DNA of 36,286 bases from Sulfurovaceae bacterium (GCA_037383745.1 JARROQ010000026.1:1-36286); one strand, 5' to 3'. Counted from the first letter of the stretch, positions 3,494 through 27,582 are shown. Program-made: numbers and translations. The notes: generated by a model not told the origin, from the sequence alone.

Positions 3494-4057
3494 ATGGATT
3501 TTATAAAAGATGAGATGTTGACACATATTCCTATGTGTGTCCATCCGGAACCAAAAAAAGTTCTCTTAATCGGGGAAAATGAGAGTATAGTGAGTGAGCT
3601 GAAAAAGCATCAAAACAGTGAGCTTCAAGTGCTTGATGCAAAAGATGCTCTCATGTCGTTACAAGAGTTTGACGAGGGGTCTATCGATATCGTCATCGTA
3701 TCAACAAATCTTTTTGAGAGCGATAGAGTATTTTGGGGGCTTGTAAAAAGAGTATTGAGCCTTAAAGGTGTTGTAAGTAGCGTGGTATCTTCTTTTGTGG
3801 ATGAAAAGGCAAAAGCAAAAACACAGATGGAGATAATGGGGGAGTATTTTAGGATAGTTATGCCGTATCTATTTATCCAACAACATTGTGGTTTTGCGCT
3901 CTTTGCTTCTAATATGCTTCATCCAACAGCGGATATCAATCTCCAAAGAGCAGATCTCACCGAGGGATTTAGATACTATAACTCAGATATCGCCATTGCT
4001 GCTTTTGCAATGCCAAATATGATACGAAAAGAGTTTAGAGGGCTCATCAAATCTTGA
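3494..4057 (+). CDS. Spermidine-synthase-like (degenerate methyltransferase-fold) protein
   Basis: KKVLLIGENESIV at the position of the GGGDGG SAM loop. Short (187 aa). Low-confidence family call from memory. Confidence 0.3.
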   Translation: MDFIKDEMLTHIPMCVHPEPKKVLLIGENESIVSELKKHQNSELQVLDAKDALMSLQEFDEGSIDIVIVSTNLFESDRVFWGLVKRVLSLKGVVSSVVSSFVDEKAKAKTQMEIMGEYFRIVMPYLFIQQHCGFALFASNMLHPTADINLQRADLTEGFRYYNSDIAIAAFAMPNMIRKEFRGLIKS

Positions 4058-4656
4058 TATTTGAACACGCTATCGCACTTACAGGAGGCATTGCTACAGG
4101 CAAAAGTTCTGCTACAGCACTTTTGAGTTTGTATGGCTTCAGATTTATCGATGCAGACAAGATAGCACACGCACATCTTGATGAGCAAAAAGAGGCGATT
4201 GCATCACTTTTTGGAGATGAGTATATCAAGGAAGCTAAGGTTGATCGAAAGATATTGGGTAAACTTATCTTTGCAAACAAAGAGAAGAAAAGAGAGCTTG
4301 AAGATTTACTCCATCCAATCATTTATGATACAATTGTTACACAATCAAAGAAAAATGAAGCGCTCGGCATACCCTATATGATCGACATACCTCTTTTCTT
4401 TGAGAGTAAACGCTATGATATTAAAAGATCATTGGTTGTTTATGCAACAAAAGAGCAACAGCTTGAGCGCCTTATGCGGCGCGAAGGGTTTGATGCCAAA
4501 GAGGCATTAAGACGGATAGAGTCACAGATGGATATAGAGCAAAAAAGAGCCCTTGCGGATTATGTGATAGATAATAGCGGTGATCTCAAGCAACTCCAAA
4601 GTGAGTGTGAGAGAGTAAAAGATCAGATACTTAGTGATTGTAAGGATAGAGAGTGA
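4054..4656 (+). CDS. coaE: Dephospho-CoA kinase
   Basis: P-loop ALTGGIATGKSS at N-terminus, ~200 aa, TTG start overlapping the upstream stop. Confidence 0.85.
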   Translation: MIFEHAIALTGGIATGKSSATALLSLYGFRFIDADKIAHAHLDEQKEAIASLFGDEYIKEAKVDRKILGKLIFANKEKKRELEDLLHPIIYDTIVTQSKKNEALGIPYMIDIPLFFESKRYDIKRSLVVYATKEQQLERLMRREGFDAKEALRRIESQMDIEQKRALADYVIDNSGDLKQLQSECERVKDQILSDCKDRE

Positions 4657-5402
4657 GAGCTACAAAATATAATGCAAGTGGAAATGATTTCATCATCTTT
4701 CATGACCAACAAAAAGAGCAGCGTTCGGCATTAGCAAAAAGATTATGTGCAAGACATACAGGCGTAGGGGCAGACGGACTGGTCGTTTTGATTCCACATG
4801 GAGAGTATGATTTTGAGTGGGAGTTTTATAATGCCGATGGTAGCAATGCTTCTATGTGTGGTAATGCTTCAAGAGCAGTAGCGCATTATGCTTGCGAAAA
4901 AGGGATATCCAAAGAGGGTAAAGCAGAGTTTTTAACCGGTGCCGGGATTATTGAAGCTGAGGTCAATGGCGAGTATGTGACTTCAAGTATGGTCACTCCA
5001 AAGATTATAGACAAAGAGATCATAGAAGACGGTGAATCGTGGTGGCTTATTGATAGTGGAGTACCGCATTTAGTTGTTTTCCGCAAAGATATAGAAGAGT
5101 TTGACCTAGCAAAAGCAAGAGCGCTGAGAGAAAAATACAATGCCAATGTCAACATTGTCAAGATCGTAGATAGAAAAAATATGCTCGTGCGAACTTATGA
5201 GCGAGGTGTTGAAGATGAAACACTCGCTTGTGGTACGGGAATAGTAGCTGCATTTGTGAGAGCTTTTGAAGAACAACAAGTAGAGAGTAAAGTTTGCATT
5301 TTAGCAAGAAGCGGTGAGGAGATAGATGTTTCTATCGAAGCAGGTGTTTACAAATTGGGTGGTAGAGTTTCAAAAGTTTTTGTAGCCGAGATATATATCT
5401 AA
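4653..5402 (+). CDS. dapF: Diaminopimelate epimerase
   Basis: NASGNDFIIF, catalytic Cys motifs SMCGNASR and LACGTG. 249 aa. GTG start overlapping the coaE stop. Confidence 0.85.
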   Translation: MRATKYNASGNDFIIFHDQQKEQRSALAKRLCARHTGVGADGLVVLIPHGEYDFEWEFYNADGSNASMCGNASRAVAHYACEKGISKEGKAEFLTGAGIIEAEVNGEYVTSSMVTPKIIDKEIIEDGESWWLIDSGVPHLVVFRKDIEEFDLAKARALREKYNANVNIVKIVDRKNMLVRTYERGVEDETLACGTGIVAAFVRAFEEQQVESKVCILARSGEEIDVSIEAGVYKLGGRVSKVFVAEIYI

Positions 5403-6430: not shown

Positions 6431-6506
6431 GATCGCGTAGCTCAGTTGGTAGAGCACTACCTTGACATGGTAGGGGTCGTTGGTTCGAGTCCAATCGTGA
6501 TCACCA
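6431..6506 (+). tRNA. tRNA-Val (anticodon GAC)
   Basis: Cloverleaf folds by hand. Acceptor GATCGCG/CGTGATC, D-arm AGCTCAGTTGGTAGAGC, anticodon loop TTGACAT, T-arm GGTTCGAGTCC, encoded CCA. Confidence 0.85.
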
Positions 6507-6576
6507 CTTCTTTTTATATATCTTCTTAAAACTTTTTGTTATAATATCACGACTTTAAACAGACGAAAGAGAATAA

Positions 6577-8391
6577 ATGGATAAAACTATTATAGGTTAT
6601 CTAGATAACGATAACGATATCATTGACACACAGAGTGTAGTGGATGGTAGTAATCTTCAAGAGATATATTATGATAACTCGCCCGAAGCTCTCGAGATTA
6701 TAAGACACTCAAGCGCACACCTTATGGCGCATGCTATCACCGAGCTTTATGGGGATGCACAATTTTTTGTAGGACCTACTGTTGATGAAGGATTCTATTA
6801 TGACTTTAGGGTGCCGCAAAAGATAGGCGAAGAGGATCTTAAATCGATAGAAAAAAAGATGAAAGAGCTTATCAAGCAAAAATTCCCTATAGAGAAATAC
6901 ACGATTACAAAAAAAGAGGCATTAGAAAAATTTGCTAAAGATGATCTCAAGCTTGCTGTTTTGAGTAGGATTACCGATGAGGTTGTCTCTATTTACAAGC
7001 AAGGTTCTTTTGAGGATTTGTGTCGTGGTCCCCATGTTCCAACTGTTGGACTATTACACAACTTTAAACTCACGCGTGTTGCCGGAGCTTATCTCGGCGG
7101 AGATGAGAGTGCCGAGATGTTAACGCGTATTTACGGGATAGCATTTGCAGACAAAGAATCACTCAAAGCATATGTTGCGATGATTGAAGAGGCGAAAAAA
7201 AGAGACCACAGAAAGCTTGGAACTGAGCTTGAGCTTTTTATGTTCAACGAAGAAGCGGGTGCCGGACTTCCTTTTTGGTTGCCAAAAGGGGCAAGGCTAA
7301 GAAATAAGCTTGAGGCAATCTTGCATGATGCACATAGACAAAGAGGCTATGAGCCCGTTCGCGGTCCGGAGATACTCAAATCAGATATGTGGAGAACTTC
7401 AGGACACTACGCCTGTTACGGGGAGAATATGTATCTCACCGAGATTGATGAGCAGGAGTATGGCATCAAGCCTATGAATTGCATCGGACATATTCAGATA
7501 TTTAAAAACAGCACCAAAAGCTACAGAGAGTTACCGCTCAAATATTATGAATACGGTGTTGTTCATCGTCATGAAAAATCAGGTGTGCTTCACGGGCTTT
7601 TAAGAGTGCGCGAGTTTACACAAGATGACGCGCATATATTTTGTACGCCCGAACAGATAAAAGGTGTTGTCTTAGAGGTTGTCGAATTTGTTGATAGTGT
7701 GATGAAGCAATTCAACTTTGACTACACCATGGAGGTATCAACAAAGCCGGAAAAAGCTATCGGCGAGGATGCGGTATGGGAGGTTGCGACTACGGCACTC
7801 AAAGAGGCACTTGATGAAAATTCGCTCCCTTACGGTATCGATGAAGGGGGCGGCGCATTTTATGGACCGAAGATTGACATCAAGATTACAGATGCTCTAG
7901 GGCGGAAATGGCAGTGTGGAACGATACAAGTAGATTTTAATTTGCCGCAAAGGTTTGATGTCGAATATGTTGCTGAAGATAATACAAGAAAGCAACCCGT
8001 TATGATTCACAGAGCTATTCTTGGATCTTTTGAGCGATTCATCGCGATTCTGACCGAACATTTCGGTGGCGAATTTCCATTCTTCATCGCCCCGACGCAA
8101 GTGATATTTGTGCCGATTGCTCAGACACACAATGAATATGCCTATGCACTAAAAAATACCTTAAGAATCAGAGGTATCGATAGTGAGGTGTATGATAAAA
8201 ATGAGAGTCTCAACAAAAGGATAAGAACAGCCGAGAAACAGAGAGTGCCGTATGTTGTCATCATCGGCGACGAAGAGGTGGAAGGTAAAGCGGTAGCGAT
8301 AAGAGATAGAAGAGCCAAAGAGCAGTATAATCTAACACAAGATGAATTTATGGTAAAATTAACCCAACAACTAGAAGAAGGAAAAATTTGA
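6577..8391 (+). CDS. thrS: Threonyl-tRNA synthetase
   Basis: 604 aa. TGS/second-additional-domain motif [10 protein letters not shown]. Class II motifs [14 protein letters not shown] and [10 protein letters not shown]. Anticodon-binding C-terminus. Confidence 0.95.
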
Positions 8392-11112: not shown

Positions 11113-12603
11113 CTACTCCCCTCTTAAGATTCCGCCATTACTTGCATTTGTTACAAGTGCTCTGTATTGTTTAAGCCATACACTAGTAAGCTCTTTTACT
11201 TTTGGCTTAAAGTTCGCTCTTCTATTTGCTATCTCTTCATCACTTAGGCGGACATTGATCGCATAGGTATCTACATCTACATCGACAACATCACCGTCTT
11301 GAAGCAACCCGATCATACCACCTTCAGCTGCCTCCGGACTACAATGCCCGATACTAAAACCTCGTGTTGCACCACTAAAGCGACCATCGGTTAAGAGCGC
11401 TACTTTACCGCCAAGTCCCATACCCATGATAAGCGATGTTGGCGAGAGCATCTCTTGCATGCCCGGACCACCTTTTGGACCCTCATATCGGATAACAACC
11501 ATATTTCCCTCTTTTACCTTGCCCCCTATGATGCCTTTAATCGCTTCATCTTGTGAATCAAAACAGACCACAGTGCCACTAAAAGTACGTTCGCCTATGA
11601 TGCCGGCTGTTTTGATGACGGCTCCCTCACTTGCTAGGTTGCCGTAAAGGATTGCAAGCCCACCCACTTTTGAGTAGGGATTATCTATCGTGTGGATGAT
11701 CTGCGTATCTTTTATCTCAGCATTTGCTACCCGTTCTCCTAGGTTTTCACCTGTGATTGTTAAAGCATCAAGGCTCAAAAATCCGCCATCACGCTTGCTA
11801 ATCTCTTTGATAACGGCATTGAGTCCGCCGGCTCTATTGATATCTTCCATATGCACGGTACTAAGACTTGGAGATATCTTTGCGATGTGGCTTACTTTTT
11901 TACCTATCTCGTTAATGTCTTTGAGCTTAAAATCAACACCGGCCTCATTGGCGATTGCTAACATGTGTAGCACTGTATTTGAGCTTCCGCCCATCGCCAT
12001 ATCGACAACAAAAGCATTTTTGATAGCCGCCTTATTGAGTATATTTTTAAATCTAAATTTCTCACTGAGCGCCTCATCTTTTGCGATCTCGCAGATTCTT
12101 CTTGCTGCTTGTCTGTAGAGCTCTTCTCGCTCCTTTGTGAGTGCCAAGATCGTACCATTACCGGGAAGCGCTATCCCCATCGCTTCACTGAGTGTATTCA
12201 TAGAGTTTGCAGTGAACATGCCACTACAACTCCCTCCGCTTGGACACGCATTACACTCTATATCTTTGAGCTCATCTGCGCTAATCTCACCCGATTCAAA
12301 TTTACCGACTGCTTCAAAGGCTGAGTTGAGATCGATAGGCACACCATCTTTTGTGTAGCCTTTTGCCATAGGCCCCCCGCTTACAAATACGGTCGGCACA
12401 TTGACGCGAAGTGCACCCATAATCATGCCCGGAACGATCTTATCGCAGTTTGGAATGGCTATCATCGCATCAAGCTTGTGTGCGTTCATCATCGTCTCAA
12501 CGGAGTTGGCTATGATCTCACGACTCGGCAGGCTATAGAGCATCCCATCATGTCCCATGGCAATCCCATCATCTACACCTATAGTGTTAAATTCAAAAGG
12601 CAC
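11113..12603 (-). CDS. ilvD: Dihydroxy-acid dehydratase; the 5' region upstream of 12603 appears disrupted (see finding)
   Basis: [33 protein letters not shown]...CDKIVPGM...[15 protein letters not shown] are classic IlvD/EDD motifs. The N-terminal ~70 aa expected from homologs is not contiguous. Confidence 0.85.
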
Positions 12604-12771
12604 ACAACCACATTTTTTGATTTCATCTTTGATGTTAGCACTTACTTTATCTAAAAAATTCTATGGGGTGCTCTGATTGCACCTCTTTTTATCTCGTCAC
12701 TTCTCAAAATCGATCCTTTTTATTTTGATTATATCACTTCTTGGCTCAAAAATCGATTGGCTTCAAAGTGA

Positions 12772-13134: not shown

Positions 13135-13189
13135 TTATCAATGTTTTTTAATCTTATTTTGATAAGATTCTACTTCTATCGGGAGATGT

Positions 13190-13277
13190 CAGAGTGGTCG
13201 AATGTGCCGGTCTTGAAAACCGGTGAGGGTAACACCTCCGGGGGTTCGAATCCCCCTCTCCCGGCCAGCATTTTCGC
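13190..13277 (+). tRNA. tRNA-Ser (anticodon TGA)
   Basis: Anticodon loop CTTGAAA, long variable arm, T-arm GGTTCGAATCC, CCA. Confidence 0.8.
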
Positions 13278-13291
13278 TATATAAAATCAAT

Positions 13292-14629
13292 TTAAAATCT
13301 CATCTTACTATTATCCTTAATATTGATAAGAACTTTGATATGCTCTACAACATCAACAAGTTCATCTTGAAGTTTCATAACCTCAAAAATATCTTTGTAT
13401 GCAAACGGTGATTCATCTAAAGTATTTTCATCAACTGTACCTGTAATCCCTTTCATTGATTCTTCAAACGCTTTCATAGAAACATTTGTTTTTGCTTTTT
13501 TACGGCTCATTACTCTCCCTGCACCATGAGAAGAAGATGATAAAGAATCTTCATGCCCTTTACCTTTTACTACAAATGATCCATCTCGCATATTACCTGG
13601 AATAACACCACTCATCCCCTCTTTGGCATGTGTCGCACCTTTGCGGTGAATCCACTCTTTACGTTCTTCATCATACTCAGCATGGTTATGATTACGGTTA
13701 ATAAACTTCTCTTCATTATAGTGTTCAAACTCAAATTTACCGCCAATAGTTTCATTCATTATATTATGAATAACCTCTATCATTTTTTTACGATTTTCAA
13801 GTGCAAAAGCGAGTGCAAAATTTTGATCTTTTATATACTCTTGCCCCAACTTGCTCTTAACATCAAGTCCCCAGATTCCAGGAAGGTTATCTAGCTTTAC
13901 TTTTTTGTTATGCTCCGCTGTTTGCTTTATTATAAACTTTTTAAGACTCTTCTCGTAACCTTCAGGGTTATGCTCTTTAAACTTTTTATTGCGCTCTTTA
14001 AAATCCTCTATAACTTTTTCTAGTTTTTCCTCTTGAGGATTTTTTTCTAAATAGGCTTGCAACATATAGTGTGATGCAATCTTATGCCCAAAACCACGAC
14101 TCCCAGAGTGAATCACGATCCACGCCTTATCATCACTACCATAACCTACTTCTATAAAGTGGTTTCCACCGCCTAGTGTACCAAGTTGCATACGTCCAGA
14201 GGTATTTAGGATATGCTCTGCAAAAGGTGTCATCTCAAGATCAATCTTCATAGGTTGGTGATTTTTATGTCTACTAAATCCCAATGGAATACGCTCAATT
14301 ATTTGATTGTAAATAGTTTGCGCATTAGCTTCCACTTCACTTTTGTTATACTCAGTTTTATACGCACACATACCACACCCAATATCAAATCCCACAAATT
14401 GTGGAACGATAACATCCTTAGTTGAGCAAACACCACCAATTGGCATTGTATAACCTGCATGTGCATCTGGCATTAGGGCTGCATATGTAACATAAGGCTC
14501 TGAAAGTACATCATAAAATTGTTCTTGTGCTGTATCATCCAATAGTTCAGCATATATTTTGTATGGTGTATTAGCTGTTTTGAATTTATCATGGTTTATA
14601 TCTAAAAACCCTAATTCTCTTAAGTTCAT
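13292..14629 (-). CDS. rtcB: RtcB-family RNA ligase (full-length paralog)
   Basis: 445 aa. MPDAHAGYTMPIGGV, GFDIGCGM, GGGNHFIEV, HNHAEY...HRKGAT, HGAGR are RtcB active-site signatures. Confidence 0.85.
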   Translation of the reverse strand: MNLRELGFLDINHDKFKTANTPYKIYAELLDDTAQEQFYDVLSEPYVTYAALMPDAHAGYTMPIGGVCSTKDVIVPQFVGFDIGCGMCAYKTEYNKSEVEANAQTIYNQIIERIPLGFSRHKNHQPMKIDLEMTPFAEHILNTSGRMQLGTLGGGNHFIEVGYGSDDKAWIVIHSGSRGFGHKIASHYMLQAYLEKNPQEEKLEKVIEDFKERNKKFKEHNPEGYEKSLKKFIIKQTAEHNKKVKLDNLPGIWGLDVKSKLGQEYIKDQNFALAFALENRKKMIEVIHNIMNETIGGKFEFEHYNEEKFINRNHNHAEYDEERKEWIHRKGATHAKEGMSGVIPGNMRDGSFVVKGKGHEDSLSSSSHGAGRVMSRKKAKTNVSMKAFEESMKGITGTVDENTLDESPFAYKDIFEVMKLQDELVDVVEHIKVLINIKDNSKMRF

Positions 14630-14698
14630 TTTTTCTCCTTATTTTATTTTGATAGGGGTATTATACAAACTATTTTGGACGTATTATGTCCAAAATAA

Positions 14699-15451
14699 TT
14701 AACATTTTTTGATTCTATTTTTTGAAGGTAGATTTTTAAATGAGTAACAGTCAAATCCTTTTGCTTGAGCTAAATACTTGTCTTCGATACACACAGTTTG
14801 CTCTTCAACCAAATCTAATGCTCCAAGGTACATTGATATCTCTTGAAAAGCTTGCATTGGTGGTACTACGTTTACAAATTTGTACTGTTTGAGTTGTGGT
14901 AAAAGTATAGTATTTATAGATATACAATCTATACCTTTTTCATTAATCCAATATTTAGATTCTATGTAAAAGTATGGCTTTTTATATAGTTCAAACAGTG
15001 CTAAAGTTTTTTCAAATGTTTGTGTAAAATGATTTTTTACATACGTTTTAAAATCTTTAGCTTGCCAATAGCTATATCCCATTGTTTCATAATCATCTTT
15101 TAGCTCGCTTAATGGCATATGATGGTTACTTATATATTTATCTACCTCTTCTACGCTATAACAATAGTTCTCATCTACGCTTTTATAGATAAACTTTTTA
15201 TTTTCTTTAGTAATACTTTCTGTTTTTATATACACCAAAGGATATGCTTTACCACAAAACAGCATCACATTAAAGTGGCATAGTATTCTATAATATTGAG
15301 ATTGTTTCTTATAAACCATCTTCGTCACACTTCGCAATTCATCTATAGTAGTTGATGCATCCATCGTAATTCGTTCAAATCTTAGTTTTTCATCTACACC
15401 ATAGGCAATACCAATGTCATAATAATCATGAAATTTTGAGATTATTTTCAT
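14699..15451 (-). CDS. Uncharacterised 250-aa protein, translationally coupled to prfH
   Basis: Start overlaps the prfH stop (ATGA). No motif recognised. Operonic between prfH and rtcB. Confidence 0.5.
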   Translation of the reverse strand: MKIISKFHDYYDIGIAYGVDEKLRFERITMDASTTIDELRSVTKMVYKKQSQYYRILCHFNVMLFCGKAYPLVYIKTESITKENKKFIYKSVDENYCYSVEEVDKYISNHHMPLSELKDDYETMGYSYWQAKDFKTYVKNHFTQTFEKTLALFELYKKPYFYIESKYWINEKGIDCISINTILLPQLKQYKFVNVVPPMQAFQEISMYLGALDLVEEQTVCIEDKYLAQAKGFDCYSFKNLPSKNRIKKC

Positions 15452-16044
15452 TTTTTCACCTCCAAAAATTTCGCTCCCTCAAAAACCTTTACAGGGTTTC
15501 CTCTTGTTATCTCTTTGCCCTCTTTCCATCTTATCAGAGCTTCTTTATCTATTTGTTCAAGACTGATTAATGCTATTTTTTTCAAAAGTCTATCTTGTGC
15601 TATCTTTTTGTTTTGATGCTGGCTTCGCTCATCATAACTGATTGCCTCAATATTAAGGGATGGATATAAAGCTCTTACTCCGCTTGATGTTGTATTAACA
15701 TGCTGTCCACCTTTTTTCGGACTTTTCATGGTCTGATAGATGATTTTTGTTTTGTCTATGCTCTCAATTTGACTCTCTTCATAACATTGCAAAGAAAAGT
15801 ACCAGTTCTTTCTTTTATGTTTTGGTCTAAAAGGGCTTGTAGATCTCCAAAGATGTGTACCTTCTAAGTCCTTAAACCCTTGGTCACTGCTTTTTAATAA
15901 GATAGATTTATAGCACTCTTTGCACAAATTTTTTTCTATGGAGATTATCTCAAAACTATAGTTTTTTTCTAACCACTTGCTAAAATGCCATAATGCTCTA
16001 CACACTTCATCTACACCGTTACCGCTACTAATATATATAAGCAT
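15448..16044 (-). CDS. prfH: Peptide chain release factor homolog PrfH
   Basis: 198 aa. GGQ motif (SPKKGGQHVNTTSSGVRALY) and SPFRPKHKRKNWYF and ERSQHQNK patterns match PrfH. Lacks a codon-recognition domain. Directly downstream of an rtcB paralog, as in known rtcB2-prfH pairs. Confidence 0.8.
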   Translation of the reverse strand: MLIYISSGNGVDEVCRALWHFSKWLEKNYSFEIISIEKNLCKECYKSILLKSSDQGFKDLEGTHLWRSTSPFRPKHKRKNWYFSLQCYEESQIESIDKTKIIYQTMKSPKKGGQHVNTTSSGVRALYPSLNIEAISYDERSQHQNKKIAQDRLLKKIALISLEQIDKEALIRWKEGKEITRGNPVKVFEGAKFLEVKK

Positions 16045-16045
16045 C

Positions 16046-16978
16046 AGCTACTCCTTATATGTAAGGATTGGTTTAAATGTAGCTATAACAGTTGCAAGTC
16101 CAGCATCTACCAAATCATCTATTACGATATCAATATTTTTATACGCCTGTGGTGCCTCTTCATAGAGTAGTTTTTTATCTTTTTGGAATAACAAGGTAAC
16201 TAAGAGTCCCTCTACTTCCAGCTATCACCACGGCACCTTTATCTGTAGGTGTCGCACCTTTTCTATGCAGTAAACCATCTTTTGTTCTTTCAATGCTATT
16301 GTGTGCTGTATCACTCACACACTTTAAATGAGATTCTATTTTTATAGCTTTGAGTAATCTTTTTGCTATTTGTTGACGACTTTGTTTTGCATATGTAACT
16401 GCTCTGTCATGCTCTTGTAAATATATATTTGCTTGAGTAACTGATAATCCCTCGCTTGGATTGTATTGTCCTGCCACTTTGTCAAATACAACCTGCCCAA
16501 ATGCACGAGAACCGCTATGAACTAAAGCATAAAGTGAATTTTCATCTAAACCCAATTGTTTAAAAAAAGTGTAATCTTTAACTTCATTTATAAGATGCAG
16601 TTCAGCAAAATGATTCCCTGTGCCTATCGTTCCAAGGTTGTATCCTGGATGTGTATCATCCTCCAGCTCTACATCCTCAAGGCTATCAATTTTGCCTAGT
16701 CTTTTTTCAAACTTATCTACTTTTAGCTTCTTTGTCTTTGAGGGACTTAGAGCTATTTCATAAAGGTTCATTCCGCATCCGATATCTCCACCGATCAGAT
16801 GTGGATAGATGCGATCTTTTGTAAGTACTGCCATACCGTTAGGAACATTTCCTACACTGAGGTCCGGCAGACCCACTATTTTTTGCACACTCTCGTAGCG
16901 TGCGATCTGTTTAAGTGTTTCTACGCTTCGAATATCGATCCAATTCGTCTCCGAAGCGATAATGGTTAGATTGTCCAT
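16046..16978 (-). pseudogene. PrfH-associated RtcB-family ligase (RtcB2-like), interrupted by a single-nucleotide frameshift in an A/T homopolymer near 16171-16184
   Basis: Frame 1 (16175-16978): GDIGCGMNL, GTGNHFAEL, HNSIERTKDGLLHRKGAT. It stops at IPKR*, then the RtcB C-terminus continues in another frame (LLYEEAPQAYKNIDIVIDDLVDAGLATVIATFKPILTYKE*) ending 2 nt before the prfH ATG. Could equally be a sequencing error. Confidence 0.6.
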
Positions 16979-17138
16979 TGTTTTCCTTGTTTATATTTGT
17001 TTTATTGTTTATAGGTTGCATGTTTTGTCTACGGTTCTGTGTAAAATGTTTCATTTTTTACTCCTTGTTTTTTGTTTGAAAAATGGTACAATATTTCAAT
17101 GACGTATTTTGTCCGATAGAAAAAAGGGGATATTTCTG

Positions 17139-17786
17139 ATGAAAAAACTTTTAATATATTTATTATTCTTTACTTTAAATTTGCATGCAAATATATTTGA
17201 TACTTATGCGGGTGAGTATCTTAATGATTTAGGTGCTAAATATCAAAAGTCCAAGGATTATACTAAGGCGGAAACTTTTTTTAAATTAGCTTGTGAAAAG
17301 AACTTTTATAGAGCATGTTCTAATCTTGGATATCTGTATCAGAATGGTTTTGGTGTTAAAAAAGATAAATTAAAAGCATTTACATTATATGAAAAAGCAT
17401 GTAATGGGGAGAATGCAATTGGATGTTTTAATCTTGGTACACTGTATCAATATGGAGAGGGAATATCGTTAGATTACAATAAGTCTAAAGAGTTTTATAA
17501 TTTTGCATGTAAAAAAGGTATAGATAGAGCATGTACACATTTGGCTATACAATATGATTTTGGACAAGGTGTGAGTAAAGACACAAATAGAGCACTTAAA
17601 CTCTATAAAGCTTCTTGTGATCATAATGATGAATATGCTTGTTACATATTAGGATATCTTTATCTAAAGGGAGAAGGTGTAATAAAAGATAAAAATCATG
17701 CGAAGTTATTGTACCAAAAAGCCTGTCGTTTGAAATCTGAAGGTGCTTGTAAGGAGTTAAATGAAATTTGGAGTCAAGATAAATGA
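17139..17786 (+). CDS. Secreted Sel1-repeat (Hcp-like) protein
   Basis: Signal peptide MKKLLIYLLFFTLNLHA, then four or more Sel1 units (ACSNLGYLYQNGFGVKKD...). RBS AAAAGGGGA. The ORF-track start at 17109 is probably too early. Confidence 0.75.
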   Translation: MKKLLIYLLFFTLNLHANIFDTYAGEYLNDLGAKYQKSKDYTKAETFFKLACEKNFYRACSNLGYLYQNGFGVKKDKLKAFTLYEKACNGENAIGCFNLGTLYQYGEGISLDYNKSKEFYNFACKKGIDRACTHLAIQYDFGQGVSKDTNRALKLYKASCDHNDEYACYILGYLYLKGEGVIKDKNHAKLLYQKACRLKSEGACKELNEIWSQDK

Positions 17787-18511
17787 GCCAAAAATCCAGC
17801 CTATACCGAACTATCGAAATCCTAAAAGAGCTAAATGCCGGTAAAAAACTTTGTGTTACCAACCTAGCTACAGCCTATGAAGTAAGCGATCGAACGATTC
17901 GCCGTGATTTTGAGCTAATCAAAGAACTCTTTGGGGACTTTATGAGTAAAGAAGGTGAGTGTTATCAGGCATATAAAAAAGTGCTACTCGAAGAGGTTTT
18001 AAATGCTACAGATTTGATGACACTAGCAAACATTGTCAACCTTTTTGGAATCATTCAAAAAGAGTCACTTATCTCTGAAAAAACTCAAGCACTTATTGAA
18101 CAATCAATGAGCGTCTATGATTTCAAATCTCGCCCGTTTGAAAACGTAAAAGATAGAGAAATACTTAAAAAGCTTGAGCATAGCATTAAATTTAAAAAAG
18201 AAATTAAAATACGCTATCGTACAGAAAGAGCCATTACTCAAGATCGCTTCCAACCCTATAAAATTCTTTTTCTCAATGAAAACTTCTACCTCGTTGGTAT
18301 TAATTCCTCAAAAAACACAGTAGAGTATCGTCGTGTCACGATGATAGAAGAGGTAGAATATACCAAAAAAAGTTTTTTCATAGATAAGGAGGTTGAAAAG
18401 TTCTTTGCGAACTTACAGACTCCTTGGGCTAGTTATGGGAGAAGAGAGATGCTTGTGCGGTTGCGCGCAGAGGTAAGCATACGCCGTTACTTTATGAAAA
18501 ACAGAAGATGA
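17783..18511 (+). CDS. WYL-domain transcriptional regulator (HTH + WYL; BrxR/CapW-like architecture)
   Basis: N-terminal HTH LYRTIEILKELNAGKKLCVTNLATAYEVSDRTIRRDFELI. WYL core YRTERAITQDRFQPYKILFLNENFYLVG...VEYRRVTMIEEV. 4-nt overlap with the Sel1 gene. Confidence 0.7.
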   Translation: MSQKSSLYRTIEILKELNAGKKLCVTNLATAYEVSDRTIRRDFELIKELFGDFMSKEGECYQAYKKVLLEEVLNATDLMTLANIVNLFGIIQKESLISEKTQALIEQSMSVYDFKSRPFENVKDREILKKLEHSIKFKKEIKIRYRTERAITQDRFQPYKILFLNENFYLVGINSSKNTVEYRRVTMIEEVEYTKKSFFIDKEVEKFFANLQTPWASYGRREMLVRLRAEVSIRRYFMKNRR

Positions 18512-18754
18512 TTAAGCGAAGTTTAGAGAAAAAAATGAGTACACTTAAAAATATCGATCGATCAAGCCTGAAACTATAAAATAATTTTCGGACATGATAC
18601 GTCCAAAAACTGCCTTATAATAACACTGTGCAAAAGCAGTTGAAGTTGCTTGCTTGCATACTTACACTGTAAGTGATGTATAAGAACGCACCCCAAGATG
18701 TAGGGCACGGATTAGTCCGTTATAAGCAATTTTGCTTGAATGACATCGCCAATT

Positions 18755-18862
18755 GTTCGTCGCGGGTTCGACTCCTGCCGTATCAGATGATGCGTAACTC
18801 AGTGGGTAGAGTGACAATAAACAAAATCGTGGGTTCGAATCCCACCAAGTCTGTTAAACTTG
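18755..18862 (+). other. Two degenerate tRNA-like fragments (T-arm motifs without a pairing acceptor stem)
   Basis: CGCGGGTTCGACTCCTGCC and a D-arm plus T-arm-like AACTCAGTGGGTAGAGT...GTGGGTTCGAATCCCAC. The acceptor stem cannot be paired and the anticodon stem is imperfect. Confidence 0.35.
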
Positions 18863-19079
18863 TAGCTAAGTGGTCGAAAGCAAATCCTTAAGAGGATTAT
18901 TTCTATAGCCTGAGAGAGCTTATCTCTCATCAAATACAAAGAAGACTGTAATCGCTAGGGCATAGGTCTTGTAATAATGCGAAAAGGTTAAAGTATGCAC
19001 TCACTTAAGATGAGTGATACATTAACTAGACCCCATTGTTCCACCTCGTTCCGCATTATGGTCATACAAAGGAAATGAT

Positions 19080-20198
19080 ATGTTTACAATTGATGTAAAA
19101 GAAAATGAAAAGGTATTGCTTTACAAAGATGAAAAATTTGTAAAAGTATTAGATGTAGGTGTGCACAGAATTTTTAGATGGTTGAGACACTATAGCATAG
19201 AGCGTATTTTTCGCAATGAATATAGTCTTTCTACTAAAAAGAGTGAAACAATGCTAAAAATGTATCCGGATAAAGTAGAAATGTACTTTCAAAAGGTACA
19301 ACTCTCTGAAGATGAGAGGGCGTATGTTTGGGTGGACGGTAACTTTGTAGAGCTTTTAGAAGCAGGTACGGTGAAACTTTACTTTAAAGAGCTTGATATC
19401 AAAGTAGAGAAAATCAATATAAAAGAGCAGATGAAAGTAGATGATAGACATATCAAATATGTTGACAGGCTCTCCAAAGTTGATGGAATCAAAAAAACTA
19501 TTGTAGATAAAAATGCGATAGGATACCTCTTTGTAAATGAAAAATTTACTTATACTCTTGAGGCAGGTAGACACTACTTCTATACAGATTTTTATGATGT
19601 AGATGTTAGAGGAATTGATACTCGTATTAAAGAGCTTGAAATTACAGGGCAAGAGCTACTTTCAAAAGACAAAGTAACTCTAAGATGTAATGTCACATTG
19701 CATTATAAGGTTAAAGATGGGATGAAATATCTCACCAAGGCAGAGGATCCAAAAGAGTATCTTTACAAGCAACTCCAATTTGCCATTAGAGAACATATGG
19801 GAGCGCTAGAGGTTGATGAGATTGTTGCCAAGCAACACAGACTCAATGATGAAGCCTATGAGAGATTCTATATACTTTGTGAACTTATTGGAGTAAAAGT
19901 TGCAGCGGTATATATCAAAGATATTATTTTACCTGGTGAAATGCGCGAAATATTTAATCAAGTAATTGAAGCAACCAAGCGCGCAGAAGCCAATAACATC
20001 CAAAGAAGAGAAGAGACAGCTGCAACAAGATCTCTTTTGAACACAGCGAAGTTGATGAAAGACAACCCTGCGTTAGCAAGGCTTAAAGAGCTTGAATCAC
20101 TCGAGAAGATTACTCAGACTGTAGGTACGCTCAATGTCTATGGTGGGCTTGAAAATGTAATGAACGGGTTGGTGGATCTAAGAGGCACAAGTAAATAA
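19080..20198 (+). CDS. SPFH/Band-7-like protein with three N-terminal ~45-aa repeats
   Basis: C-terminal half resembles the SPFH domain (…IILPGEMREIFNQVIEATKRAEANNIQRREETAATRSLLNTAKLM…ARLKELESLEKI). N-terminal triple repeat E.a.l...G.FV.LLEAG.h.f. Confidence 0.45.
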   Translation: MFTIDVKENEKVLLYKDEKFVKVLDVGVHRIFRWLRHYSIERIFRNEYSLSTKKSETMLKMYPDKVEMYFQKVQLSEDERAYVWVDGNFVELLEAGTVKLYFKELDIKVEKINIKEQMKVDDRHIKYVDRLSKVDGIKKTIVDKNAIGYLFVNEKFTYTLEAGRHYFYTDFYDVDVRGIDTRIKELEITGQELLSKDKVTLRCNVTLHYKVKDGMKYLTKAEDPKEYLYKQLQFAIREHMGALEVDEIVAKQHRLNDEAYERFYILCELIGVKVAAVYIKDIILPGEMREIFNQVIEATKRAEANNIQRREETAATRSLLNTAKLMKDNPALARLKELESLEKITQTVGTLNVYGGLENVMNGLVDLRGTSK

Positions 20199-20246
20199 AA
20201 TAGTTATTGTGCAGGCTAAGCCTCTTCCTGGCCCGTGTAACATCTT

Positions 20247-20263
20247 GCCTGAAAAGTTCAGGC
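20247..20263. terminator. Perfect 7-bp hairpin GCCTGAA-aag-TTCAGGC in a GC-rich spacer between convergent genes
   Basis: Located between the SPFH gene (+) and the patB-like gene (-). Unusually GC-rich for this genome. Confidence 0.3.
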
Positions 20264-20309
20264 AATCCCTCCCTAGCCAGCTTCAATAAAAAATCAATCA
20301 CAATATTTT

Positions 20310-21413: not shown

Positions 21414-22646
21414 TTAAAAGATAAAGTAGTAAAATTTTATTTCTCTATGCAGATACGCCATTGAGATTAATAGTAGCAATGCTGTAAAAAAGATGTTGTT
21501 TTTGTTTGGAGTCATATTTGTCTGCTCTAAAAAAACTCTTGTGATATTTAAGAAGTTAAAGGTAATCAGCCATGCTAGTATGATGTTTATCTTGAAGCCA
21601 ATTTTTTTCCATACATCTACTATCACGAGTGCCATACCATGCAGCAATCCCCAGATAACAAATGTCCACCCTGCACCATGCCAGATGCCACTGATAAGAA
21701 ATGTCAACAGGATGTTTACATGCAATGTAATTTTTCTTTTTTTCAAAGGTATGGAGATATAGTCTCTCAAGAAATGCGAAAGCGTGATATGCCAGCGTTG
21801 CCAAAACTCTTGTATGTTTAAGGCCCTATAGGGTGATCTGAAATTAACGGGAAGTTTGATATTAAAAAGTAATGCTATGCCGATTGCCATGTCGGTATAG
21901 CCGCTAAAGTCAAAATAGAGCTGAAATCCAAATGAGAGGCTCGCTACCCAAGCCTCTATAAGATTAAGATCATAAGGACTACCAAAGCCATAATTGGACC
22001 ACTGTGCAAAAGTGTCTGCAACGACTACTTTTTTAAAGAGACCTATAGCAAAGATGAAGATACCTTTGGCGATATTTTCATAATTTAAGCTTTTACTATC
22101 GCGTGAAGCAAATTGTGGCATCATCTGTTTATGGTGGACGATTGGTCCCGCGATAAGTTGCGGGAAAAATGTCACAAAAAGCGCATAGTTTATAAAGTTG
22201 TTTTCTTTAACACGACCCGAATAACTATCGCTCAGATAGGCGATTTGTTGAAATGTGAAAAAAGAGATAGCAAGTGGCAATGCGATATGCATCAATGAGA
22301 AGTTTGTATCAAGCAAGAGATTAGTATTTGTGATAAAAAAATCATAATATTTAAAGTATCCTAACAGTGACACATTGACAACGAGCCCAAAAATCAAAAG
22401 CGGTTTTTTCTTTATAAACGTTTCTGTTGCATTTTTTGCTATCTTAAGACCGACAGTATAATTGAAAAGCATAGAAAAGAGTATGAGTGGCAGATAAATG
22501 ATGTTCCACCAACTATAAAAGAAGAGAGATGAAAAAAGTAAAAATAGCTTACTGAGTGACGAAAACCCTTTATGGTTTAGATAAAAATAAAAGAGAAAAG
22601 CTATGGGTAAAAAGAGAAAAATAAATATATAGGAGTTAAAGAGCAA
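21414..22646 (-). CDS. MBOAT-family membrane O-acyltransferase (AlgI/DltB/PatA-like)
   Basis: Multi-TM protein with the MBOAT hallmark WQRWHITLSHFLRDYISIPL and conserved His in ISGIWHGAGWTF. Confidence 0.85.
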   Translation of the reverse strand: MLFNSYIFIFLFLPIAFLFYFYLNHKGFSSLSKLFLLFSSLFFYSWWNIIYLPLILFSMLFNYTVGLKIAKNATETFIKKKPLLIFGLVVNVSLLGYFKYYDFFITNTNLLLDTNFSLMHIALPLAISFFTFQQIAYLSDSYSGRVKENNFINYALFVTFFPQLIAGPIVHHKQMMPQFASRDSKSLNYENIAKGIFIFAIGLFKKVVVADTFAQWSNYGFGSPYDLNLIEAWVASLSFGFQLYFDFSGYTDMAIGIALLFNIKLPVNFRSPYRALNIQEFWQRWHITLSHFLRDYISIPLKKRKITLHVNILLTFLISGIWHGAGWTFVIWGLLHGMALVIVDVWKKIGFKINIILAWLITFNFLNITRVFLEQTNMTPNKNNIFFTALLLLISMAYLHREIKFYYFIF

Positions 22647-25420: not shown

Positions 25421-27469
25421 TTATTTCTTTATTCCTAGATCACCGTTGAGCATCTCATCATGCTCATCCATATCCCATGGTAGGGTTCCCGGAGTTGTGT
25501 GCATAAAGCGGAGGTATCTTTGAAATTGACTGATGATGTCATGGATAACCGTATGTTCTTCAAAACCGTAGAGATCATAATGGAGTCCGCCTCTTCGTAA
25601 AAAAACTTCGGCATTATAGTAGTGTTCTTGTGCTTTATCGGCATCAAGGAGTGCAAATTCGGGCATAGTATACTCTTTGAGACGTACCTCATAGATAAAC
25701 TTGGTGCTTTCATCTTTGTAGATAGTGATGATCGAGCGAATAGATGTTTCATCATACACAACATCACAGTGCCAGCTTGAGTTACTAAGTTCTTTTTTGA
25801 TTTTTTGCATACCATTATAGACATTGTGTTTTATGTAAGCACTTACCTCTTCCTTTTGAGGAAAAGTGATAAGCTCTGCTAGCCTGTTCTTCCATTGCCT
25901 CGCATCATCAATAGTAGGAGCAATGTCTATGTTGATATCTTGCTCTAAGCTTGTATTTCTATGGTTTTCTATCACGAGCGCGCGCCACATTCCAAGTGCG
26001 GCCAAGAGCATGATGAGCGCAAAAGGAAGAGCGCTTGCTATAGATGCACTCTGTAGAGCCTTGAGTCCACCGGCAACCAAAAGGACGGAGGCGACAACCC
26101 CTTCGATGCTCACCCAAAAGACTTTTTGCCAAAGCGGTGTTTTTGCTACACCGCCCGAGGCTAAGGAGTCGATCACAAGAGAAGCCGAATCCGACGAGGT
26201 GACAAAGAAGGTAATGATCAAGATAACCGTCATAAAAGAGATAAAAGAGCTTAGAGGCAGGTGCTCAAAAAGTTTGAAAAGCGCTATGGCTTTATCGGAT
26301 TGTACCTCAGTGATCAAAGAGTTGTATCCATCCATCATCACCATATGCAACGCCGTATCACCAAAGACAGAGAACCATAAAAAGGTAAATAGGGTCGGAA
26401 CAAACATAACGCCAAAGACAAACTCTCTGATGCTTCTGCCTCGACTGATCTTGGCGATGAAAAGTCCCACAAATGGTGCCCATGCGATGGTCCAACCAAA
26501 TATAAAGAGTGTCCAGTGCCCCATCCAATCACTTGCGCTATAGGCTTGCAAGCTAAATGTTCGCTCAACGATATTGCTGAGATAACTCCCGATATTTTCT
26601 AAAAAAGTATTTAAGATAAAGATAGTCGGCCCTACTAAAAAAACAAATGTCATCAAAGCAATAGCGAGGAGCATATTAACAATAGAGAGCCGTTTGATAC
26701 CCTTATCCATCCCCGCTACTACGGAAAAGAGTGCAAGAGCCGTAGTGGATGCGATCAGGAGTATCTGCACAGTCGTGCTTACCGGGATATCTACCCAAAG
26801 ATAGTGAAGTCCTGCATTGATCTGCGCAACAGAGAGCCCCAAAGTCGTAGCAACCCCGAAAAGGGTACCCAAGATAGCAAAGATATCAACGATATGTCCC
26901 GGCCAGCCGTATATCCTATCGCCAATGAAAGGATAGAGTGTAGAGCGCATAGAAAGCGGTAATCCATGTCTAAATGCAAAGTAAGCAAGACTTAATCCCG
27001 CTAATCCATATATCCCCCAGATGTGAAAACCCCAATGAAAGAAAGATATCTGCATCGCTTGTTTGGCTGCCTCTATAGTTTGTGGATCACCAACGGGTGG
27101 AGCGGCATAGTGCATGATAGGCTCGGCAACTCCAAAGAAAAGAAGTGCGATGCCGTATCCTGCGGAGAAGAGCATAGCAAACCACGAACTAAAACTATAC
27201 TCAGGCTCAGAATGATCGGGCCCGAGTTTGGTCTTACCCCAAGGTGAGATAGCAATAGCTATGATAAAGATGAGAAAAAGCGCAACAGAAAGCATATAGA
27301 ACCAGCCGAAATCTTCGGTGATGTACTCGAGCATCGAGGCAAATATTTCACCTGCTAGATTTGGATTGGCTATGGTTCCTATCACCAAAAGCCCTATGAC
27401 GATAACGGCAGGGATAAATACCGGCATAAGGACACTTGAGCCTGATTTTCTAAAGTCCTGTAAAGACAT
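25421..27469 (-). CDS. BCCT-family transporter (betaine/choline/carnitine type) with long cytoplasmic C-terminal domain
   Basis: 12-TM core with the BCCT signature WTLFIFGWTIAWAPFVGLFIAKISRGRSIREF. 682 aa. Confidence 0.85.
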   Translation of the reverse strand: MSLQDFRKSGSSVLMPVFIPAVIVIGLLVIGTIANPNLAGEIFASMLEYITEDFGWFYMLSVALFLIFIIAIAISPWGKTKLGPDHSEPEYSFSSWFAMLFSAGYGIALLFFGVAEPIMHYAAPPVGDPQTIEAAKQAMQISFFHWGFHIWGIYGLAGLSLAYFAFRHGLPLSMRSTLYPFIGDRIYGWPGHIVDIFAILGTLFGVATTLGLSVAQINAGLHYLWVDIPVSTTVQILLIASTTALALFSVVAGMDKGIKRLSIVNMLLAIALMTFVFLVGPTIFILNTFLENIGSYLSNIVERTFSLQAYSASDWMGHWTLFIFGWTIAWAPFVGLFIAKISRGRSIREFVFGVMFVPTLFTFLWFSVFGDTALHMVMMDGYNSLITEVQSDKAIALFKLFEHLPLSSFISFMTVILIITFFVTSSDSASLVIDSLASGGVAKTPLWQKVFWVSIEGVVASVLLVAGGLKALQSASIASALPFALIMLLAALGMWRALVIENHRNTSLEQDINIDIAPTIDDARQWKNRLAELITFPQKEEVSAYIKHNVYNGMQKIKKELSNSSWHCDVVYDETSIRSIITIYKDESTKFIYEVRLKEYTMPEFALLDADKAQEHYYNAEVFLRRGGLHYDLYGFEEHTVIHDIISQFQRYLRFMHTTPGTLPWDMDEHDEMLNGDLGIKK

Positions 27470-27582
27470 AAAAACTCCTTGCTTTGGTCATTCATTGTAA
27501 CAAAAGAGTCTTAATCGCGATAATTTAGAGAGTGATAAAGAGCAGTGCCATTGCGACACCTAACGCCTATTTCCCAAATTGA

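Follow-up and report, generated by a model that had tools for sequence, protein, structure and literature searches.

We analysed a contig of 36,286 nucleotides (nt) from a Sulfurovaceae bacterium (GCA_037383745.1, JARROQ010000026.1:1-36286), called the window below, that carries genes of the RNA ligase RtcB and the ribosome-rescue factor PrfH. We found a 7,012-nt island without an integrase at a tRNA-Ser gene, which can be read, with a probability of about 60%, as an inducible RNA-damage response. A first-pass annotation had pointed to four minus-strand genes of the same direction at 13292-16978 (rtcB2, prfH, a gene for a protein here called X, and a second rtcB), and all four open reading frames (ORFs) are present at these coordinates; they form one arm of the island, the other comprising a Sel1 gene, an HTH-WYL regulator gene, an RNA of ~450 nt and an SPFH/slipin gene. 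Its proposal of an elaborated RNA-repair module stands insofar as the order rtcB2-prfH-X-rtcB recurs in other contigs, and was drawn too narrowly, the unit running from 13270 to 20281 and taking in the WYL regulator, the tRNA-like RNA and SPFH. Sequence comparison demonstrates the island, its insertion, a shared operator, a conserved RNA structure and the synteny. The features are as follows (aa, amino acids).

13180..13269, plus strand: tRNA-Ser(UGA), the integration target (ARAGORN; empty-site comparison with L217 and L218)
13249-13269, plus strand: attL, the left direct repeat, equal to the tRNA-Ser 3′ end, AATCCCCCTCTCCCGGCCAGC
13292..14629, minus strand: rtcB, 445 aa, with a ~60-aa Lys/Glu-rich insertion; Pfam RtcB (PF01139), 282.5 bits
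14660..14695, minus strand: rtcB promoter; operator TTTTGGACATAATACGTCCAAAA (14695..14673), 7 nt, TATAAT
14699..15451, minus strand: X, 250 aa; full-length match to phrog_4243 (unknown function)
15448..16044, minus strand: prfH, 198 aa, short EcPrfH type without a C-terminal tail; TIGR03072
16047..16978, minus strand: rtcB2, of the PrfH-associated clade, with a 143-nt deletion inside; TIGR03073
16911..17054, minus strand: leader ORF, 47 codons (38 in relatives), overlapping the rtcB2 start; strong AAGGAG ribosome-binding site
17083..17118, both directions: divergent promoter; degenerate operator CGGACAAAATACGTCA (17115..17100), back-to-back -10 boxes TACCAT and TGGTACAAT
17139..17786, plus strand: Sel1-repeat protein with a signal-peptide-like N-terminal segment; variable cargo slot
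17783..18579, plus strand: HTH-WYL(-WCX) regulator; HTH_DeoR 29.9 bits, WYL 28.8 bits
18586..18621, plus strand: RNA-SPFH promoter; operator TTTCGGACATGATACGTCCAAAA, 7 nt, TATAAT
18628..19079, plus strand: structured RNA, or a long leader of SPFH, holding two permuted tRNA-like modules (18754-18817 and ~18824-18885)
19080..20198, plus strand: SPFH/Band-7 protein (slipin), 372 aa; Pfam Band_7, 74 bits
20264-20281, plus strand: attR, the right direct repeat, AATCCCTCCCTAGCCAGC; the island ends at 20281

The island was delimited by comparison with two related genomes. The window, L217 and L218 share the flank order methyltransferase-MBOAT-352aa, tRNA Ser-Cys-Leu-Gly, ilvD-NlpC/P60-L20-IF3-ThrRS, and in L217 and L218 nothing lies between tRNA-Ser and the 352-aa gene. 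This empty site reads AATCCCCCTCTCCCGGCCAGC followed directly by TTCAATAAC; the window has 7,012 nt after the same tRNA 3′ end, and its flank 3′ of attR, TTCAATAA, continues like the L217 empty site. The direct repeat that bounds the island is 18-21 nt long and imperfect, with ~16 identical positions; it is marginal on statistics alone (1.6% of random windows score equally high), which the empty site resolved. By this comparison the insertion is into the 3′ end of tRNA-Ser. Family scans found no recombinase or integrase among the island ORFs, all of which are accounted for. In L215 the same module (89-95% identical over 13269-20234) lies between lgt and rsfS/nadD. Horizontal acquisition, which the first-pass annotation had based on the tRNA-adjacent, AT-rich location, is shown directly by the empty site in two related genomes and the direct repeats at the tRNA-Ser 3′ end, not by composition: the GC content of the island is 34.6% vs 37.2% for the rest, 7-kb windows of the contig range over 32.2-40.5%, and composition was dropped as transfer evidence, the island being no outlier. 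Only X (28.8% GC) and sel1 (29.0% GC) are AT-rich within it. The island-free L218 has two att-like copies near its tRNA-Ser, at 11177-11216 and 11318-11356, ~140 nt apart, which may be the scar of an earlier insertion or excision.

We examined the promoters of the island for a common operator, defined as the 15-bp palindrome GGAC-N7-GTCC lying 11-12 nt upstream of a -10 box, at the place of the -35 box. Two exact matches occur in the window vs 0 expected. The form GG[AT]C-N7-G[AT]CC occurs at 34 sites in 369 kb of related loci vs ~5 expected, and 31 of these are 11-12 nt upstream of a -10-like box. Such sites precede the gene for the 445-aa RtcB (rtcB445), RNA-SPFH, X and further accessory genes, and wherever a related locus carries rtcB445, this arrangement lies upstream of it. 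The divergent promoter region, between leader-rtcB2-prfH-X on one side and sel1-WYL on the other, is kept in L001-L007, and in every locus of sufficient length the WYL gene either diverges from the module or adjoins it. Because the operator precedes all three units and is conserved across Campylobacterota loci, rtcB, RNA-SPFH and rtcB2-prfH-X look like one regulon. WYL-domain transcription factors include PafBC, DriD, BrxR and CapW. The regulator here resembles these in its HTH-WYL-WCX architecture (in orthologs), in a palindrome that overlaps the promoter, in likely autoregulation and in its apparent control of a stress or defence module; unlike them, it would have an RNA-repair target regulon, with a site directly upstream of the -10 box in promoters without a -35 box. 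PADLOC defence models gave no match for the four noted genes and generic WYL matches only for the regulator. The same operator also stands before other accessory genes in relatives (L045 4563-5100, L051 3952-4500, L045 865 on the minus strand and L208 6868 on the minus strand); their products are a Zn-ribbon protein of 166 aa whose helical tail is charged, a Zn-ribbon/DUF4145-like protein of 207 aa and an unknown protein of 747 aa.

The RNA ahead of SPFH is built of modules, one to three per locus, each laid out as a T arm, a loop-closed acceptor hairpin and a D arm. Unlike Salmonella YrlA, it matches the Rfam YrlA model (RF02553) only at positions 23-86 of 114, the match lying at 18754-18817 (38.8 bits, E 5e-7); the L002 RNA scores 42.6 bits. 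In alignment to the model and in covariation it has the YrlA tRNA-like domain, that is, T arm, closed acceptor stem and D arm. Among 17 modules from 10 loci the T arm is 98.8% paired and the acceptor hairpin 96.4%, and double changes occur at 8 of 10 pairs; none of 500 shuffles reached the observed covariation score, and slid controls were at most 48.5% paired. All SPFH orthologs that were fetched, including those at loci without RtcB, have the RNA conserved upstream. The SPFH protein itself has more than 6,000 homologues, and the combination of SPFH and tRNA-like RNA has an RNA ligase (RtcB or Rnl-type) in its neighborhood in the window, L002, L046, L208, L212 and L215. A weak match to the tRNA model at 18788-18853 (31 bits) had been considered as a pseudo-tRNA left over from an att site; this was replaced by the overlapping D arm and T arm of two YrlA-like modules. 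In L208 (9788-11528) an SPFH ortholog of 508 aa with the same upstream RNA stands beside PTS_2-RNA/Tpt1 and an Rnl-type ligase instead of RtcB.

The neighborhood of prfH was compared across Campylobacterota-type loci, counting assessable cases only. A TIGR03073-clade rtcB2 lies directly upstream of prfH in 16 of 16. X follows prfH in 16 of 19, and in 13 of 25 rtcB445 lies no more than 1.6 kb after X; X is absent from L212 and L214 and lies elsewhere in L061. The full four-gene order is found in the window, L005, L006, L007 and L215/L216; it recurs in Sulfurovum, Campylobacterales and Arcobacter contigs and in the close relative L215. These counts (prfH-X and X-rtcB445) describe a modular, recurrent architecture and not a fixed four-gene operon. 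The single operon of the first-pass annotation is also contradicted by the promoter of the 445-aa rtcB, which is its own and bears an operator. Between X and rtcB445, L001, L044, L046, L050, L057, L061 and L066 have a recurrent protein of 250-286 aa (MKKENKAIDARLFVLIPTESH...), with no Pfam match and absent from the window.

[quoted passage not shown] Against TIGR03072 it scores 149.5 bits, residues 1-193 aligning to model positions 1-200 of 200, and the next best model is prfB with 60 bits. Its score, taken with those of its orthologs, places it in a divergent clade best termed PrfH-like. As had been noted, the rtcB2 stop abuts prfH (its TAG lies 5 nt upstream of the prfH ATG, and the end of rtcB2 contains AAGGAG), and the X start overlaps the prfH stop, as ATGA. 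In the leader ORF ahead of rtcB2 (MKHFTQNRRQNMQPINNKTNINKE...), Asn, Lys, Gln and Thr codons abound, so it could serve as a leader that senses translation or be a chance ORF in AT-rich sequence. Gene calling gives L212, L214 and L215 an equivalent of 38 aa, and in L002 such an ORF stands before X.

The second RtcB by tRNA-Ser is full-length as reported, with 445 aa; the gap to the tRNA is 24 nt, not 14 (the tRNA 3′ end being taken as 13267). All its catalytic motifs are intact: MPDAHAGY, GFDIGCGM, GGGNHFIE, HSGSRGFGH, NHNHA and SSSHGAGR. It falls outside the TIGR03073 and PRK09588 equivalogs (132 and 163 bits), and the rtcB445 clade scores 120-140 bits on TIGR03073 vs a cut-off of 271.8, which intact rtcB2 orthologs exceed with 343-374 bits. 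By profile score it is a distinct RtcB clade; the clade resembles phage RtcB (phrog_1075, 376 bits).

Protein X is 100% identical to the product of NCBI locus tag P8Y46_05565; an exact-match look-up of X found no match, and Pfam, NCBIfam and PADLOC gave none. A profile search collected 7,965 cluster representatives at E ≤ 1e-3; almost all of them are 220-270 aa long and consist of a single domain. Conserved motifs include N-terminal MKIISKFxDYYD, GFCGKxYP, AFQEISMYLG and KGFDxxSF. The family is basic, with a median isoelectric point of 9.0 and a median net charge of +6 in the last 20 residues. The structure prediction for X (AlphaFold model, pLDDT 83.8) has no convincing structural neighbour. 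Pol-beta nucleotidyltransferase (NTase) and Zn-ribbon proteins, which are among the known PrfH accessories (PMC6514570), were considered for X and rejected, as neither motifs nor fold fit.

Viral contexts of X were sampled in 79 IMG/VR loci (L126-L204). With no whole-genome baseline for these counts, tRNA genes lie within 8 kb of X in 47 of the 79 loci, with at least five tRNAs in 31, and within 1 kb in 27. They are often less than 100 nt away, and 379 of 380 are on the strand of X. Genes for HNH, Rnl-type ligase, NAMPT/NadR and macro-domain proteins also neighbour X in viruses. In Stenotrophomonas phage DLP_6 (L124, 106759-107520) the X homologue sits within an array of ~30 tRNAs, and in Ralstonia phage RsoM2USA it precedes a YqeY-like gene. 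With low confidence, we take X to be an accessory factor directed at RNA or tRNA. The idea that X and RtcB form a fixed pair in phages was ruled out by their rare proximity in the viral sample.

Taken as an inducible response, the island would work as three units under one regulator: leader ORF-rtcB2-prfH-X, the 445-aa rtcB, and the YrlA-like RNA with SPFH/slipin. The WYL domain would sense a product of RNA damage, upon which all units would be switched on. PrfH would free the peptide from ribosomes whose 16S rRNA was cut in the manner of colicin E3, and RtcB2 would reseal the rRNA, as is known for the E. coli pair. The 445-aa RtcB, with SPFH and the tRNA-like RNA as scaffold in the way Burroughs and Aravind predicted, may reseal other broken RNAs, most likely tRNAs, and X may aid on the tRNA or the ribosome as a basic RNA- or tRNA-directed accessory factor.

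Parts of this scheme have relatives among described systems. PrfH of the RtcB2-PrfH pair releases peptide from ribosomes with cut 16S rRNA, which RtcB2 reseals (PMC9304027, PMC9223846, PMC13166195). The window agrees with the pair of E. coli ATCC 25922 in a TIGR03073-clade rtcB directly upstream of a short GGQ PrfH without the GTPase-interacting domain, in the tight packing of the two genes and in a sporadic, horizontally transferred distribution. It differs in a divergent PrfH below the TIGR03072 cut-off, in the translational coupling of X 3′ of prfH and in a second RtcB of another clade, as well as in the leader ORF, the predicted WYL control, the link to SPFH and a tRNA-like RNA, and the interrupted rtcB2. 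Accessory genes described around PrfH-RtcB encode TPR, Pol-beta NTase and Zn-ribbon plus charged-helix proteins (PMC6514570). Like these accretions, the loci here have extra genes around a two-gene core, among them the TPR-like Sel1 gene of the window and, under the same operator in L045 and L051, genes for Zn-ribbon plus charged-helix proteins; unlike them, X fits none of the four accessory types. Sel1 is unlikely to be a cytoplasmic scaffold, because it has a signal-peptide-like N-terminus and appears exported.

Burroughs and Aravind (2016, NAR 44:8525), in the portions quoted in bioRxiv 10.1101/312249 and PMC6514570, predicted Band-7/b7a-tRNA/RtcB systems. The island resembles these, as so quoted, in its SPFH gene, the adjacent tRNA-like non-coding RNA, RtcB in the neighborhood and a mobile, conflict-associated character. 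It departs from the quoted description in one to three tandem YrlA-type modules apparently co-transcribed with SPFH, in the addition of PrfH-RtcB2 and X, and in a definable operator and regulon, the overlap with their catalogue being uncertain. An SPFH gene has also been described inside the rtc locus of P. aeruginosa (PMC13086221). The rsr-yrlBA-rtcBA operon of Salmonella (Ro60, Y RNAs, RtcB and RtcA, under sigma54 and RtcR) is likewise an inducible RtcB operon with an RNA that has a tRNA-mimic effector domain and a regulator with a ligand-sensing domain (PMC7790460; 10.1101/312249). Unlike the Salmonella operon, the island has no Ro60, RtcA, RtcR or sigma54 promoter; SPFH stands in the place of Ro60 and HTH-WYL in that of CARF-RtcR.

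Several observations weigh against reading the island as an inducible RNA-damage response. The YrlA score is about half of the gathering threshold (69), and the match does not extend over the full model with its Ro60-binding helix; among the 31 window ORFs scanned, which included all ORFs of at least 400 aa, none matched Ro60/TROVE. The folding energy of the RNA is no better than that of shuffled sequence (z = -0.73). No terminator lies between the two, so the RNA could be no more than a structured 5′ leader of the SPFH transcript, or be processed from that leader. The PrfH clade is under the TIGR03072 equivalog cut-off of 166.65, with 127-150 bits (orthologs 127-145). RtcB is near X in only 2 of the 79 viral loci, and X is dispensable in some loci and adjoins housekeeping genes in Acidobacteriota. 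That the WYL protein binds the palindrome, and whether it represses or activates, is something we infer. Finally, if the gene-internal deletions discussed below are real, the copy in the window is without an active RtcB2 and without a complete regulator.

The same parts might instead be a patchwork of independent conflict modules gathered at a shared integration hot spot without cooperating, namely RtcB2-PrfH, a separate RtcB, SPFH-RNA with WYL, and a phage-derived X. The loci that lack X (L212 and L214), the 12 of 25 loci where rtcB445 does not follow X, and L205-L207, which have WYL-RNA-SPFH with no RtcB nearby, would all be expected of such a patchwork, as would the constant presence of a promoter of its own before rtcB445 and the variable slot upstream of WYL (Sel1, LMW-PTP, HEAT, Fic, HipA). 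It sits poorly with a single operator before all units, even before X alone (L061) and before rtcB445 directly after prfH (L212), with the conserved divergent promoter between WYL and rtcB2/X, and with the movement of the module between contexts as one 7-kb block at 89-95% identity, and we regard it as unlikely. A different role for X within the island, that of an RNA-targeting effector or toxin (e.g., a tRNA-degrading enzyme, as in some phages with their own tRNA sets) with the RtcB ligases as antidote or limiter, would suit its place in phage tRNA arrays and in early auxiliary regions with HNH, NAD-salvage, macro-domain and Rnl-type ligase genes, its strongly conserved Asp-rich motifs (N-terminal SKFxDYYD, D20 and D224) and its position next to ligases that undo RNA cuts. 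No nuclease-like fold or motif was found in X, however; its translational coupling is to prfH and not to a ligase, and it stands alone beside housekeeping genes in many Acidobacteriota without a ligase, which is unexpected for an unguarded toxin. We consider this role very improbable.

The deletions bear on whether the copy in the window works at all. The first-pass annotation had called rtcB2 frameshifted; alignment with intact orthologs and L215 replaces a simple frameshift by a clean internal deletion of 143 nt at 16182/16183. The first ORF (16978..16175, 267 aa) scores 251 bits on TIGR03073 over positions 2-272 of 356, and the last ~40 aa (KLLYEEAPQAYKNID...TYKE) are in another frame, down to 16047. 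About 47 codons are gone, including the SLAHGAGR block. The His of the RtcB HGAGR motif forms the RtcB-GMP intermediate. The RtcB2 active site is therefore incomplete in this contig, and rtcB2 is intact in L215. The WYL gene has a 144-145-nt deletion at ~18501 (vs L215), because of which its ORF stops at 18511 with the C-terminal rest out of frame; the orthologs are intact at 304-314 aa and carry the WCX domain, which is missing here. Against L217 and L218, ilvD has a 94-nt deletion at 12658/12659, the MBOAT gene a 214-215-nt deletion at 21518 and a HisKA_2 histidine kinase gene a 166-nt deletion at ~29166. A decaying, non-functional remnant, its rtcB2 and WYL deletions real and only fragments working, would account for an rtcB2 without the His nucleophile motif, a regulator without its WCX end and an island with no integrase left. 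It is distinctly unlikely: the lesions in the compared regions are all of one type, five deletions of 94-215 nt inside genes that break the frame, three are outside the island, ilvD included, and all five genes are intact in relatives, so that scaffold gaps fit better. In addition, prfH, X, rtcB445, the RNA and SPFH are all undamaged and share 89-95% identity with L215. Because five lesions of one type, with no other type, extend to genes outside the island, the deletions are probably collapsed scaffold gaps, an assembly artefact; the organism therefore probably has an intact version as in L215, and apparent pseudogenes of this contig of a metagenome-assembled genome are suspect.

We know of no pathway other than RtcB2-PrfH that rescues and reseals ribotoxin-cut ribosomes. 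To our knowledge, partners and regulation of bacterial RtcB systems beyond E. coli and Salmonella are largely uncharacterised. If the island is an RNA-damage response, it is a portable and compact 7-kb unit, intact in L215, with PrfH, two RtcB clades, SPFH and a Y-RNA-like tRNA mimic under one operator, whose exact sequence gives a handle on the WYL regulator as a possible RNA-damage sensor. The core pair, the association of SPFH with a tRNA-like RNA and the accretion of genes around PrfH-RtcB are already in the literature (PMC6514570). A single mobile unit that combines the parts, an operator that is defined, a tandem YrlA-type RNA paired with SPFH where Ro60 would be, and family X together with its connection to the tRNA arrays of phages appear to be new against the literature consulted. 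The covariation supports a tRNA-like RNA beside Band-7 genes, predicted in 2016 and, as of a 2018 paper, not validated by experiment. Family X ties bacterial RNA repair to phage tRNA arrays, and so bears on the arms race over tRNA-cleaving defences. More tentatively, and on balance doubtfully, X could be a large unannotated family (~8,000 clusters at 50% identity) of new fold whose direct target is tRNA or translation RNA that has been damaged, kept in the tRNA arrays of large phages and coupled to PrfH/RtcB in bacteria, possibly as a new tRNA repair, quality-control or anti-anticodon-nuclease factor; the island would then be the first WYL-governed regulon for RNA damage to be defined, one in which SPFH takes the part of Ro60 as partner of a Y-RNA-like tRNA mimic.

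The slot 5′ of the WYL gene is swapped between close relatives: the window has the exported-looking Sel1 (17119-17782) where L215 has a gene like that of low-molecular-weight protein tyrosine phosphatase (LMW-PTP) and a 195-aa protein (4051-4918). Elsewhere this slot holds an LMW-PTP-like phosphatase and unknown proteins (L212 and L214) or HEAT-repeat, Fic and HipA proteins (other loci). Outside the island, a BCCT transporter gene (682 aa; window 25441-27482) is also found in L218 and is missing at the same place in L217, a difference of 2,040 nt. An Rfam match to HPnc0260, a Helicobacter antisense RNA, at 6468-6596 on the minus strand of the window (67.7 bits vs a gathering score of 59) is partly antisense to tRNA-Val; it is unexpected in Sulfurovaceae and may stem from the tRNA complement.

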